Source: Promethearchaeia archaeon
GTDB taxonomy: Archaea > Asgardarchaeota > Lokiarchaeia > Sigyniarchaeales > SOKP01
Length of the DNA: 32,000 bases
Reading direction: 5' to 3'
Assembly: GCA_046497275.1 (NCBI GenBank)
Contig: JAWOFX010000007.1
Location: forward strand, 1-32,000
Of the stretch, positions 1 through 3,452 are shown one piece after another. Within the stretch, counting starts at the first letter, position 1. Each line of letters starts with the position of its first letter. The notes beneath the pieces are model-generated. The model had not been told where the DNA came from. It did not search any database and saw nothing but the letters and a program-made list of their open reading frames with translations. Position numbers and translations under genes: made by a program.

Positions 1-65
1 AAATTAATACATAGTCTTTAAACTCAAAATGTTTGCATTTTGGATAGGGTGGAATACATTCGCAA

Positions 66-147
66 TTATCGAATTTTTTACAATAAGAACAAAAATGAAA
101 AAAATTTGAAATTTTGCGGAGTCTAGACGATTTTATCGAATTTTTTA
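66..147. repeat. 15-bp exact direct repeat TTATCGAATTTTTTA (66-80 and 133-147)
   Basis: Read directly. Copies are 67 bp apart and each is preceded by CG 5 nt upstream. No third copy in register. Confidence 0.6.
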
Positions 148-193
148 AATATAAATTTTCAAATACATATAAAATAAAAAATATTAGTAGCGT

Positions 194-2485
194 ATGGATA
201 ATAGGGATTTAAGACTTTCTTGCGATTCGGGTCGTAGAAGATGTTCTGCCAATCATTCAGATATTTTTAGAGATGATAATGTTTTCATTATAAAACGGGA
301 ACGCATTGAAAAAATGGAATCGATGAGTGAAGAAAAAGGGCGTTATTCCGCCGAATCAGTGCGAATATCTCGGTCAAGATTTGCTTTAAGTGGATTGGAT
401 CGCCTTGCTAACCGCTCTCGAGCACTCGCAAACGATACTTTATATTTTTTGCGGCAGTATTATTTTTTTCATAATACAAATGATCCCGAGATAAGGGCAC
501 TTTATCGTAGAAATATAGGTAATAAATTTTACAAAACCATAAAAGAGTCCGAATATCCTAATGAGAAAAAAAATGCCGCTGTAGTGATTTTGAAAGACTT
601 ATTTGTTAAATTAAAGGCGTTGAAGAGTATTGTTCCAACGATAATGAAATTTATGGAATCCTACAAGGACATAGGATATTCTCCTTGTGCTCAAGCGATC
701 GTTAAATCCGTGTGTGAAACTTTTATCAGTCATCTAAAATTAATAGAGGAATGGGAAAACGCCCCCAAAAATCAACGCGAACAAAAACCATCACGACCTG
801 GTCTACCCCGATATTTTGGCAAAAAGATAGCGGGAGAGCGAGTGGGAAAGTGGAAATTGATTTATCCGAAGCAAAGGCTCGCTCACGCTGGGAACAAGGA
901 AAGCAAGGATAAGGCCCTCGAAAACCAGCAATATACTTGCTATATGTATGTGCCACCCTCATACGATCATTTAATCCCCCGAATACGAGTCAGAACAAAA
1001 GTGCTATCTCAATTGCTCAAAAACGGCGGGTTTGTGGAGATTATTCCTTGCGAGAAAAATTACTCATTTAACATCCAATATATCAAGACCAAAGAACAAC
1101 GAGCAAGAGAATATGGTTTTGATATCAATAGACACGAGAAAAACCCTAATCGAGCCATTTCTATCGACTTCGGAGTAAATAATTTCCTCACAGTTTTTAA
1201 CAATTTTGGTGCGAGATTTCCTATCTTTAGCGGATCAATGTTAAAGCGTTGGAACTATAGGATAAATCATAATATTCCCACACTACAACGTCGTGCTGAC
1301 GTGATTGCCGATGTGATAAAGCGATATGAAGAAACGGAAGCTCCATTAGAATCAATCATCAATTCTCGAATTCAAACCTATCACGACGAGTTCGGGAAAT
1401 TGAAAAGAATGATTCTCTATATTTTTAGGAAAATTTCTAATCTTTCAAGATTAGATATTAATAATTTAGACAATCAAGCCATTGTTCTCAAATGTTTTCG
1501 TTCCAAATCATTTTTTAAGATAGTAAAAAATACAAATTGGAACGATTTCAAGAAACTTGCTGAAAAGAACGGTCAGAGAATCTATAAAGGCATTTTTAAT
1601 AAAATTAGGAAAATTATCTTGATGGAGATTGCCCCACGTGAAAAGAATTCTCTCTTGCATAAGTATTTTCGCTATTTACAGAGTAAAAGAGATCGTAAGA
1701 TGAAAATTCTCAAAAAAATTTTAGGATATTCAATTCAGGATTTACAAGATTATTTGGAATCACTTGGGTTAAGGATTGATGAATTATGGGACAAATATGA
1801 CAGAGTGAAGAGAGATTCCATTAATAAGATTGCCAAAAAGTTAATGTATTATTGTTTATATTATAAAGTAGGAACGATTACTTTCGGTTATAATAAAGGT
1901 TGGCAAAATCAACGCAATAAAAAGATAAAATTGAATAAATTAACCAGAGATTTATTCGTTTCATTGCCATTTAACCAAATGTTCGAGAGAATTCAGCAAG
2001 AAGCGATTTATTTTGGAATAAATCTGGATTATACAACCGAATGGTATACCAGCAAATGTTCATATATCGACGATGAATCAATTGGGAAAAAACCAAATGA
2101 TGAATATATTGGATTACGCAGATTTACCCAGAACGGAGTAAAACATAATGGGTTATTTCGATCAAAGGACGGAAAAATCATTCACGGAGATATCAACGGT
2201 GCGGCTAATATCGGTAGAAAACAACATCCAAAATTATTTTCCAAACGAATGATCGCCTATATCTTATGTTTGATTTCCGATCCTCGCCGACGCCTAACCA
2301 ATCAAGCAAAACAAAGGGTTAATAAATTTATCACTACCCCGCCCATAAAATTTTCCCCTTCAAATGGAATTCCTACCAAAAAATTGAAAAGAAAAGAAAG
2401 GTTAAATAAAAGTAAGGTTAGACCACAAAGGCATCAAATGAGTCCAAGTAAATTTTTGGAAAAGACTCAAACTGCCTATGTGTAG
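194..2485 (+). CDS. tnpB: Large TnpB-family RNA-guided RuvC endonuclease (likely real start ATG 314 or 323)
   Basis: N-terminal LANRSRALANDTLYFLRQYYF and PGLPRYFGK motifs. RuvC-I AISIDFGVNNF (D325). The canonical RuvC-II position reads TITFGYNKGWQ (G instead of E), followed by TEWYTSKCS (E616). RuvC-III GLFRSKDGKIIHGDINGAANIGRK (D666). Confidence 0.85.
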   Translation: MDNRDLRLSCDSGRRRCSANHSDIFRDDNVFIIKRERIEKMESMSEEKGRYSAESVRISRSRFALSGLDRLANRSRALANDTLYFLRQYYFFHNTNDPEIRALYRRNIGNKFYKTIKESEYPNEKKNAAVVILKDLFVKLKALKSIVPTIMKFMESYKDIGYSPCAQAIVKSVCETFISHLKLIEEWENAPKNQREQKPSRPGLPRYFGKKIAGERVGKWKLIYPKQRLAHAGNKESKDKALENQQYTCYMYVPPSYDHLIPRIRVRTKVLSQLLKNGGFVEIIPCEKNYSFNIQYIKTKEQRAREYGFDINRHEKNPNRAISIDFGVNNFLTVFNNFGARFPIFSGSMLKRWNYRINHNIPTLQRRADVIADVIKRYEETEAPLESIINSRIQTYHDEFGKLKRMILYIFRKISNLSRLDINNLDNQAIVLKCFRSKSFFKIVKNTNWNDFKKLAEKNGQRIYKGIFNKIRKIILMEIAPREKNSLLHKYFRYLQSKRDRKMKILKKILGYSIQDLQDYLESLGLRIDELWDKYDRVKRDSINKIAKKLMYYCLYYKVGTITFGYNKGWQNQRNKKIKLNKLTRDLFVSLPFNQMFERIQQEAIYFGINLDYTTEWYTSKCSYIDDESIGKKPNDEYIGLRRFTQNGVKHNGLFRSKDGKIIHGDINGAANIGRKQHPKLFSKRMIAYILCLISDPRRRLTNQAKQRVNKFITTPPIKFSPSNGIPTKKLKRKERLNKSKVRPQRHQMSPSKFLEKTQTAYV

Positions 2486-2543
2486 TAGTTCTACCTAATA
2501 CCGATTCACGAAAGTGTTGCTGGTCGCAGAGAACGTGCACTCT
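2412..2543 (+). ncRNA. Putative omega/reRNA scaffold overlapping the tnpB 3' end (5' limit unknown, may start further upstream)
   Basis: Nested stems found by hand: 2424-2433/2473-2482, 2439-2443/2465-2469, 2444-2447/2456-2459, CAC-GAAA-GTG 2507-2516, 2488-2492/2530-2534. The position is where TnpB guide scaffolds are known to lie. Confidence 0.45.
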
Positions 2544-3452
2544 TTAAAATGCATTGCCTTCTTTTTTTTCCATATCTGAAATACGGTTTTCTAAAAGAGT
2601 TATGGTTTCGATCAAATTATTTATTTTTACATTCAGTTCTTGTACTTTATTTTCGATTGCTCCTATTCTATTCAAGGCCCAATTCAGAGAATTATCCTCT
2701 TCGTTTGGTTTTATTAACCAATTAAAAATATTTTTTATAAATTTACGATTCTCTAATTGATTTATTCCAAAATTAGGGTCTTTTGAAAATATATCTACAT
2801 CTCCAAGAGCAACTATTTTTCCTTTACCATAAGTTGAACAAGCTGAAAGAACATATTTCTCTTTTTTTTGATCTTGATCCCAATCATTAATCGAAGGATT
2901 ATATCTCTCTGACCATACATTATTGTTCAATTCAAGCAATATAATGGCATTACCCTTCAATAATATTGAACATGATCCTCCTATAACTACCTCTCTTAAT
3001 TGGTGAGTTATATCATGTTCTGGAAAAGATTTTATATTAAGGATACTTGTACTGTTTTGATCTAATTCTATTTTTTCCTTCAATATGGTTTTTTCAAAGA
3101 AGATATCAAAATATTTGCCCGAAATATCGTTAATATTTGTTTTTTGGAGAGGATCTCCTCCATATTCACTAATTAGAAGTAATGAGCCTCCTTGTTTAAC
3201 AAAATCTATAATATTATTGATTTCCGAACTTGAAAAATAATCATTTATAGGATTGCCTATGACCAAAATATCTACATCTATTAATAACTCATCAGTAATA
3301 TCAGAATTCTCATTTTTTATAATATCTTGATTAAGAGTTTTAAGGAGATTTAAAAAGTCAGAGTATTCACTTTCAGAGAGATTAAGCATTTCATTATGCG
3401 ATACATCAAATAAAATAGTGGATCTTTTTGAAAATGACATTATATAATCCAA
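2544..3452 (-). CDS. GIFT/DUF4350-like (GldG/IFT52-type, class I GATase-like fold) protein with C-terminal coiled coil
   Basis: ILFDVSHNE ... DILVIGNP ... FSSSEINNIIDFVKQGGSLLLISE ... GKGKIVALGD ... NRKFIKNIFNWL pattern, then heptad-rich tail (aa ~255-298). Confidence 0.6.
   Translation of the reverse strand: MDYIMSFSKRSTILFDVSHNEMLNLSESEYSDFLNLLKTLNQDIIKNENSDITDELLIDVDILVIGNPINDYFSSSEINNIIDFVKQGGSLLLISEYGGDPLQKTNINDISGKYFDIFFEKTILKEKIELDQNSTSILNIKSFPEHDITHQLREVVIGGSCSILLKGNAIILLELNNNVWSERYNPSINDWDQDQKKEKYVLSACSTYGKGKIVALGDVDIFSKDPNFGINQLENRKFIKNIFNWLIKPNEEDNSLNWALNRIGAIENKVQELNVKINNLIETITLLENRISDMEKKEGNAF

Follow-up and report, generated by a model that had tools for sequence, protein, structure and literature searches.

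A CRISPR-less clade of enlarged TnpB proteins with a conserved helical insertion in Asgard archaea

ISDra2 TnpB holds only about 12 base pairs (bp) of heteroduplex, and every Cas12 except Cas12f and Cas12k has a REC2 insertion reaching the duplex end distal to the protospacer-adjacent motif (PAM), which Cas12f reaches by dimerising (Nakagawa et al., PMC10097598). The REC2 of Cas12m2 is a kinked coiled coil that extends recognition to a duplex of about 17 bp, and REC2 insertions or dimerisation are seen as gained to read the far end of the duplex for CRISPR immunity (PMC10097598). Alpha-helical subdomains accrete stepwise from TnpB to Cas12b (Altae-Tran et al., PMC10691335). Here we describe P0001, a TnpB-family gene in a window of 32,000 nucleotides (nt) from a Promethearchaeia archaeon (positions 1 to 32,000 of contig JAWOFX010000007.1, assembly GCA_046497275.1). 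Among described systems, P0001 comes closest to ordinary TnpB and to the REC2 insertions found in Cas12.

The host genome measures 3.85 Mb and is 98.9% complete, and the window starts at the first base of its contig (C118). P0001 is almost certainly a real TnpB with a genuine, conserved insertion. In it we see a TnpB that Asgard archaea enlarged once, independently and with no CRISPR context, at a site like that used in Cas12b. Our overall reading, to which we assign a probability of roughly 0.6, is that P0001 encodes the zinc-finger-less, omega-RNA-guided TnpB of a Promethearchaeota element of about 2.7 kb and that the protein bears a REC2-like arm.

The enlarged TnpB gene and its catalytic core

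The gene and its parts are listed below by window position (aa, amino acids; pLDDT, predicted local distance difference test; dN/dS, ratio of nonsynonymous to synonymous divergence; pI, isoelectric point).

194..2485, + strand: TnpB-family gene P0001, 763 aa, ATG start, TAG stop at 2483-2485, no internal stop
194..340, + strand: N-terminal 49 aa; weak model (pLDDT <50 for residues 1-31); dN/dS 0.50
341..1123, + strand: WED and REC region, aa 50-310, with gains of about 42 aa (REC) and about 26 aa (mid-WED); dN/dS 0.26
1166..1168, + strand: codon of D325, RuvC-I catalytic aspartate, motif ISIDFGVNN
1235..1861, + strand: helical module, aa 348-556, in the full model; pLDDT 94.3 in a separate domain model
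1289..1771, + strand: insertion proper, aa 366-526, between bridge helix and RuvC-II
2039..2041, + strand: codon of E616, RuvC-II catalytic glutamate, motif TTEWYTSKCS
2042..2188, + strand: zinc-finger-less TNB domain; a single cysteine, C622, and no CxxC pairs
2189..2191, + strand: codon of D666, RuvC-III catalytic aspartate, motif HGDINGAANIG
2264..2482, + strand: basic C-terminal tail, aa 691-763; pI 11.6; pLDDT <50 for residues 724-763

P0001 was matched by Pfam OrfB_IS605 at 40.3 bits, over the cut-off of 30.5. The Pfam Cas12f1-like_TNB match to residues 593-673 (22.2 bits, cut-off 26.3) and the NCBIfam guided_TnpB match (57.6 bits, cut-off 100) fell under their cut-offs, the latter in two stretches because the insertion interrupts P0001 relative to the model. 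The RuvC triad (D325, E616 and D666) stands in canonical order and is unchanged in 29 of 29 large homologues; among 123 aligned TnpBs, D325 is invariant and the other two residues are each retained in at least 90%. Judged by its sequence, P0001 is a catalytically intact TnpB-family endonuclease. The enlarged protein is very probably functional, and it is likely to be an active RNA-guided nuclease.

The AlphaFold2 model, which used 123 aligned homologues, had a mean pLDDT of 85 and a predicted template modelling score (pTM) of 0.81, and all 45 Foldseek matches to it at E <=0.001 were Cas12, TnpB, TranC or Fanzor. In VIA-align comparisons the model superposed on ISDra2 TnpB with Z 15.7 (root-mean-square deviation 4.2 A, 330 of 341 residues) and on Cas12f with Z 15.8. 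A sequence search of the PDB with P0001 alone found no match; when 29 homologues were combined into a profile, the sole match was a weak one, to a dead Cas12f (E 0.004). The initial annotation of this DNA had described an oversized, apparently active TnpB with its motifs in order, and the triad, the OrfB_IS605 match and the model agree with a catalytically intact TnpB.

Like ISDra2 and other IS200/IS605 TnpBs (PDB 8exa, 8h1j, 8iaz), P0001 combines the WED-REC-RuvC-TNB fold (VIA Z 14.2-15.7) with the D/E/D triad, and its gene lies at the 3' end of the element, with a conserved right end about 70 nt beyond the stop and variable DNA after it. Unlike them, it is almost twice as large, with an insertion of about 148 aa after the bridge helix and expansions in REC and WED; it lacks the zinc finger, carries a basic tail of 67 aa and has no TnpA match in cis or genome-wide. 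The family also departs from IS200/IS605 in its left ends, which vary by subfamily, and in including fusions of about 1,800 aa. Fanzor, the TnpB homologue of eukaryotes and giant viruses (PDB 9b0l, 9cf0), is another enlarged TnpB-like nuclease (P0001 versus Fanzor2, Z 14.3). Fanzors are carried by varied transposons, and P0001 is likewise element-borne, but it is archaeal, keeps the canonical glutamate position and has different insertions.

In the alignment, the C4 zinc finger of the TNB, a frequent though not invariable TnpB feature, is lacking both from P0001 and from its nearest relatives of 434-441 aa, and zinc-finger loss has been reported for some large TnpB branches (PMC10691335). A C-x6-C...H motif is found in the N-terminal 49 aa. 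It reads S-C-x6-C-S-x3-H-S-D at aa 10-22 (window 221-259), and a looser version, C-x5-8-C followed by H, occurs in distant large homologues. This stretch, where the model is of low confidence, may form a small metal-binding knuckle. Another N-terminal addition in the clade was seen in the outlying large homologue P0133, whose residues 132-192 match DUF5667 (Pfam E 4e-13).

The insertion between bridge helix and RuvC-II

To locate the additional residues, segment lengths were taken between conserved anchor residues in P0001 and in 90 ordinary TnpBs, with the following results.

N358 to D541: 184 residues in P0001; ordinary TnpB median 36 (range 23-69); net gain about 148 aa
N80 to P205, REC: 126 residues in P0001; ordinary TnpB median 84
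P205 to P285, mid-WED: 81 residues in P0001; ordinary TnpB median 55
Tail after P697: 67 residues in P0001; ordinary TnpB median 12; distant large group 7

Beyond these segments, P0001 bears about 49 additional N-terminal residues. The coordinates proposed in the initial annotation for the largest excess (aa 366-526, nt 1289-1771) proved right. Its estimate that related TnpBs have 10-15 residues at this site was too low, since the nearest short relatives have 51-55 between the anchors. It had also called the insertion basic; the net charge is indeed +17 (pI 10.0), but the whole protein is equally basic (pI 10.0). Six positions of the insertion are lysine or arginine in at least 80% of 32 sequences.

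The insertion is shared by more than 30 homologues drawn from independent JGI, ENA and NCBI assemblies. It can be aligned in three sets of homologues: 18 close ones with 63-81% identity, 12 distant ones with 27-30% identity and an anchor-to-anchor length of 151-161 residues, and a further two in which that length is 188-189 residues. In a FastTree phylogeny of 405 best-occupied core columns, the 32 insertion proteins formed one clade with support of 0.98 and no short TnpB within it. Trimming drops the insertion columns from this midpoint-rooted tree, whose proteins were chosen by similarity to P0001 and include no Cas12 sequences. The large clade sits amid ordinary short TnpBs, and P0207, another enlarged protein, branches outside it. 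Because the 32 proteins are monophyletic on core columns, the sequences place a single origin of the insertion in this lineage, at the base of the clade. Pooled pairwise dN/dS over ten copies was 0.35 for the insertion, 0.13 for the RuvC parts and 0.26 for WED/REC, values that identify the insertion as a constrained protein domain under purifying selection. Pfam searches of the insertion, the tail and the N-terminus of P0001 found nothing meaningful. Our literature search found no publication that describes this insertion, although the published census tree may include sequences of the large clade in one of its branches without comment.

The full model and the separate domain model gave the same architecture. 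The bridge helix is lengthened to 34 residues (348-381), a second long helix runs back (385-417), four short helices form a small tip (427-476), and helices 481-508 and 514-556, the last of 43 aa, rejoin RuvC strand 4. We place the insertion after the bridge helix because the secondary structure of the model shows the bridge helix there. In the models, the RuvC alpha-1 hairpin of minimal TnpB (bridge plus return helix) has grown into a coiled-coil stalk with a tip. In Cas12b, Cas12e and Cas12i, helical-II/REC2 sits between the bridge helix and RuvC-II, and the helical domain of P0001 occupies the same topological position. Unlike those proteins, P0001 is found without a CRISPR array or cas genes, and its insertion has no detectable fold match to a solved REC2. 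Cas12m2 resembles P0001 in having a coiled-coil arm on a compact TnpB-like core, but its coiled coil is inserted in the REC domain, and Cas12m2 is CRISPR-associated and does not cut double-stranded DNA. The insertion is thus topologically analogous to a Cas12b-type REC2, and homology is not demonstrable. The insertion may plausibly help to hold the guide-target duplex, as REC2 does; we put the chance that it contacts the heteroduplex slightly below even. The longer proofread guide or altered cut pattern that the initial annotation suggested is hypothetical.

The arm might, on the other hand, bind protein instead of clamping nucleic acid. Dimerisation through it could take the place of the second Cas12f subunit, or it could offer a docking surface, either for a host factor or for the portion of the giant forms (last section) that comprises the N-terminal module and the protease-like domain. 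A long antiparallel coiled coil with a small tip is a common interaction scaffold, dimerisation gives Cas12f its access to the distal duplex (PMC10097598), and giant (P0250, P0111) and short forms both have the insertion. We nevertheless regard such a module as unlikely, given that short forms without the N-terminal module hold the insertion under purifying selection, that the monomer model packs the domain confidently on the rest of the protein (pTM 0.81), and that the conserved basic positions suit contact with nucleic acid. Homodimer prediction with two copies of the insertion domain scored 0.02 against a mark of 0.42, which counts neither for nor against a dimer. A search of the ESM Atlas with aa 360-530 gave no lead (scores <0.9, TM <0.5).

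Element ends, copies and the candidate omega RNA

The non-coding features of the element and the candidate RNA in the window are as follows.

1..193, + strand: remaining left part, 5' leader and likely promoter; similar to paralogues from base 1
2315..2554, + strand: candidate omega RNA scaffold, proposed from conservation
2486..2554, + strand: non-coding right end, 69 nt, ending ...AAAATGCAT at 2554
2555..2574, + strand: candidate guide; DNA directly outside the right end, different in every copy

The element measures about 2.7 kb, and its paralogous copy L002 is 2,728 nt long. DNA similarity between copies spans base 1 of the window (further upstream in others) to exactly 2554. This right end is sharp in more than 30 copies, every one of which ends ...AAATGCAT and then diverges. 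The left end is missing because the contig start falls inside the element; the loss is about 184 nt by comparison with L002 and about 240 nt by comparison with L003-type copies. Among group-A copies, the roughly 100 nt upstream of the ATG are near-invariant and more conserved than the coding sequence. A palindrome, GTCTAGAC, lies at 121-128 (a 10-bp CGTCTAGACG in three of the four paralogues shown), followed by an A/T-rich, TATA-like stretch at 141-159, and the sequence from 100 to 193 may combine a promoter and an operator. On the antisense strand, a frame of about 60-100 codons is conserved in the left part of group-A copies; its start is cysteine-rich (F-C-S-Y-C-K-K-F-x-N-C-x-C...), and it has no Pfam match. 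It is found at window 1-193 (-), L014:7624-7809 (-) and L002:1100-1315 (-); one copy is frameshifted, and only the first 64 or so codons are left in the window before the contig start.

The host genome holds nine substantial copies with 72-81% amino-acid identity, eight of them full or nearly full length, as well as fragments, and many of these copies lie at contig ends. Sixteen copies had 16 unrelated right flanks, also between genomes of one genus. In a sister species we found an empty site, where the genes that flank L002 are 365 nt apart instead of 2,764 nt. The family was found in two of six other genomes of the genus, and close homologues came only from Promethearchaeota (Lokiarchaeota-like) metagenome-assembled genomes, in line with the Asgard-like host suggested by the initial annotation. 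Downstream of P0001, a convergent gene (2544..3452, - strand, 302 aa) draws its last three codons and stop from the right end of the element, and the insertion of the element therefore replaced the original C-terminus of this neighbour. L002 similarly sits within the last codons of its left neighbour. Group-A copies have a common left boundary near ...TAGTCC..., with fuzzy similarity for about 25 nt further outward; an ATTAAT-like motif occurs in four left flanks and in the empty site, and L002 may be bordered by a 5-bp ATGAA duplication, although the exact junction is not fixable. What appeared to be 'solo' 3' fragments in sister genomes proved to be contig ends and were rejected.

The best-conserved DNA of the element is its last 240 nt or so, the tail codons plus the 69 non-coding nt (mean column identity 76% over 19 copies). 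The C-terminal tail is specific to the close family and overlaps this most conserved 3' DNA, and synonymous divergence drops modestly there (0.42, versus 0.54 in the adjacent core). A hairpin at 2507-2516 (CAC-GAAA-GTG) keeps its 3-bp stem while the loop varies among GAAA, GCAA, AAAA and GAAU; in a single copy the loop is GCGA and the stem gains an additional, compensated pair. Positions 2528-2531 may pair with 2540-2543, and 2535-2539, in the loop of this second stem, may form a pseudoknot with the terminal UGCAU at 2550-2554. The proposed helices are paired in 95% of cells, and departures are mostly one-sided changes from G-C to G-U, tolerated on the + strand only. Both the RNAalifold structure and a hand-drawn pseudoknot structure are compatible with the alignment, and a scan of window 1-3000 against Rfam gave no match. 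The antisense strand of 2335-2554 was also observed to fold better than shuffles (z -2.4), which probably reflects its G+U-rich composition. We propose an omega RNA with a guide from 2555 on the known biology of the family and on this conservation. The variable DNA outside the right end fits a candidate guide because the OMEGA (obligate mobile element-guided activity) model places the guide there (PMC10691335).

No CRISPR array was found in the window or beside the close and distant homologues examined, and no adaptation gene (cas1, cas2, cas4) was present among the called neighbours. These results, the lack of a Cas1 match and the single-origin clade bear out the independent, CRISPR-less TnpB expansion that the initial annotation had envisaged. 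No Y1 or serine transposase adjoined any copy examined. Y1 TnpA is represented in two sister species solely by genes at contig ends, L117:42-407 (-) and L118:3246-3642 (+). These genes precede the N-termini of ordinary short TnpBs, which belong to a separate IS605-type element and not to the large family. IMG/VR viral contigs yielded only ordinary TnpBs, which matched residues 527-700, and no member of the large clade. P0001 shares with the aCas1-associated TnpBs (Cas1H-Asgard-1 and -2; PMC10691335) its place as an Asgard TnpB in an unconventional element. Membership in that group was rejected, since those TnpBs have an Asgard Cas1 homologue as neighbour, while the genome has no Cas1 match, and the conserved GTTCACTCA motif that lies downstream of their genes, after a hypervariable region, was not found downstream of P0001. 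Aloposons are unrelated, and the paper that describes them makes no mention of TnpB (PMC8813620).

The copies could alternatively have lost their mobility and been retained by the host as paralogous RNA-guided nucleases or binders, with a role other than transposon maintenance, for example in defence, regulation or genome rearrangement. That the genome gave no transposase match suits this explanation, as do the setting of each copy as an isolated gene amid housekeeping genes, the purifying selection on paralogues that are 72-81% identical and nearly all intact, and the generally low recent mobility of archaeal TnpBs (PMC10691335). We consider it distinctly improbable, however: the 16 copies have no flank in common even within one genus, one site is empty, the distribution in the genus is patchy, and copies break contigs as near-identical repeats do. 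Most exapted TnpBs have been inactivated (PMC10691335), yet the triad here is complete, and metagenomic assembly hides near-identical copies, so that the age of the copies is overestimated. The oversized reading frame could also be artefactual: a chimeric assembly or an unrelated nested fragment, both of which the initial annotation had allowed for, or a pseudogene in decay. The window does open at a contig end inside the element and several other copies are truncated or have stop codons, but an artefact is extremely unlikely because the same architecture recurs across JGI, ENA and NCBI assemblies and the insertion, in frame and aligned throughout, is under purifying selection (dN/dS 0.35), folds confidently and is present in more than 30 homologues.

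Returning to the omega-RNA-guided TnpB with a REC2-like arm, the proposed mechanism would run as follows. An omega RNA would be transcribed from the conserved last 250 nt or so, which comprise the 3' part of the coding sequence and the 69 nt of the right end, and transcription past the boundary at 2554 would make the adjoining host DNA serve as the guide. The protein-RNA complex would then cut matching DNA through the single RuvC site, with the insertion acting as a REC2-like arm on the part of the guide-target duplex distal to the target-adjacent motif (TAM), an arm gained independently of CRISPR. In this scheme we infer the nuclease activity, the omega RNA with its guide and the role of the insertion.

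Several results weigh against this reading. With the isolated insertion, Foldseek returned nothing below E 0.076 from the PDB, and the VIA-align matches, from a comparison with 48,161 chains, were all antiparallel coiled coils of a generic kind, with Z reaching 9.4 at most across some 85 residues; neither search retrieved a Cas12 REC2. Generic matches of this kind do not show a new fold. The positive charge of the arm is not particular to it, as the entire protein is equally basic. Covariation in the proposed RNA helices did not exceed that of shuffles (17-329 of 500 reached the observed values), and the single-sequence fold of the + strand was no better than shuffles (z -0.4). No TAM could be defined from the left flanks of the copies. 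The copies are old (72-81% amino-acid identity, synonymous divergence about 0.7), so current mobility is unsupported, and the 98.9%-complete genome had no match to Y1 TnpA (PF01797), serine recombinase (PF00239) or Cas1 (PF01867).

Giant relatives and the significance of the family

In full-length form, members of the clade of P0001 are fusion proteins of about 1,800 aa. P0250 (L143:683-6142) is a protein of 1,819 aa encoded on a 45-kb contig, and its element has the same right end as the window element. It consists of an N-terminal region of about 900 aa without an assigned family, a retropepsin-like domain (the retroviral type of protease), a linker and a TnpB with the insertion. At L133:1-3705 and L134:1-3705, from one JGI sample, the frames are open for at least 1,234 codons and their 5' ends lie beyond the DNA examined. 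The retropepsin-like domain shows the motifs LDSG(F/S) and IVLGLDAI and matches Pfam RVP below the cut-off (E 0.002-0.003). The distant group also contains a giant of this layout, P0111, which is 1,806 aa long, shows 26% identity and has DTGA as its motif.

The N-terminal part of P0250 is not confined to TnpB fusions. The giants P0251 and P0252 have it in common with P0250, and their C-terminal half is unrelated; hhalign found no homology between this alternative half of P0251 and the TnpB profile. The host genome itself contains a frame of 1,758 codons (L144; C111:38867-41974, - strand) that was not matched by the TnpB query and whose giant N-terminal module is 58% identical to that of P0250. 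This frame may be of the P0251/P0252 type, with the module joined to a different partner. Searches of the giant N-terminal modules against NCBIfam and PHROGs found nothing, the ESM Atlas gave no usable match, and our literature search found no paper pairing TnpB with an aspartyl protease.

The first 45 or so residues of P0001 align with the giants' linker, directly behind their protease-like domain, and the 763-aa form looks like an N-terminally shortened derivative of the giant form. Compared with L133, the copies L006 (near 1149), L007, L131 and L141 start abruptly at varied points of the giant frame and have unrelated DNA upstream. One begins inside the LLDSGS (protease active-site) codons, two start roughly 100 nt beyond that point and the fourth roughly 240 nt beyond it, and all of these 5'-truncated copies have the same 3' end. 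The family is thus made up of 3'-anchored copies of variable 5' extent together with subfamilies that have different left ends, a pattern not obviously produced by classical IS200/IS605 peel-and-paste transposition.

These observations allow a more speculative view, which we think is probably not correct, in which the TnpB with its arm is the C-terminal module of an undescribed Asgard element. Such an element would have a polyprotein-like gene of about 1,800 aa (the ~900-aa module, a retropepsin-like protease and TnpB), whose protease might cut the fusion into working parts. It would spread with no known transposase, through a process anchored at the 3' (omega RNA) end that would leave 5'-truncated copies, of which the window copy may be one. 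If this were true, a REC2-like enlargement of TnpB would have taken place in a transposon setting, before and independently of CRISPR.

The fusions with a protease domain and the failure to find a transposase pose a separate question, namely how TnpB elements spread in Asgard archaea. With some 760 aa, P0001 itself is a candidate for an RNA-guided nuclease that works as a monomer, and the archaea that carry it are close to eukaryotes. The family offers a natural test of what a REC2-like arm contributes to a minimal TnpB in terms of guide length, mismatch tolerance and DNA unwinding. That a CRISPR-less TnpB clade gained and kept an arm comparable to those of Cas12, at a Cas12b-like site, suggests that such enlargement is selectable in a mobile-element setting.

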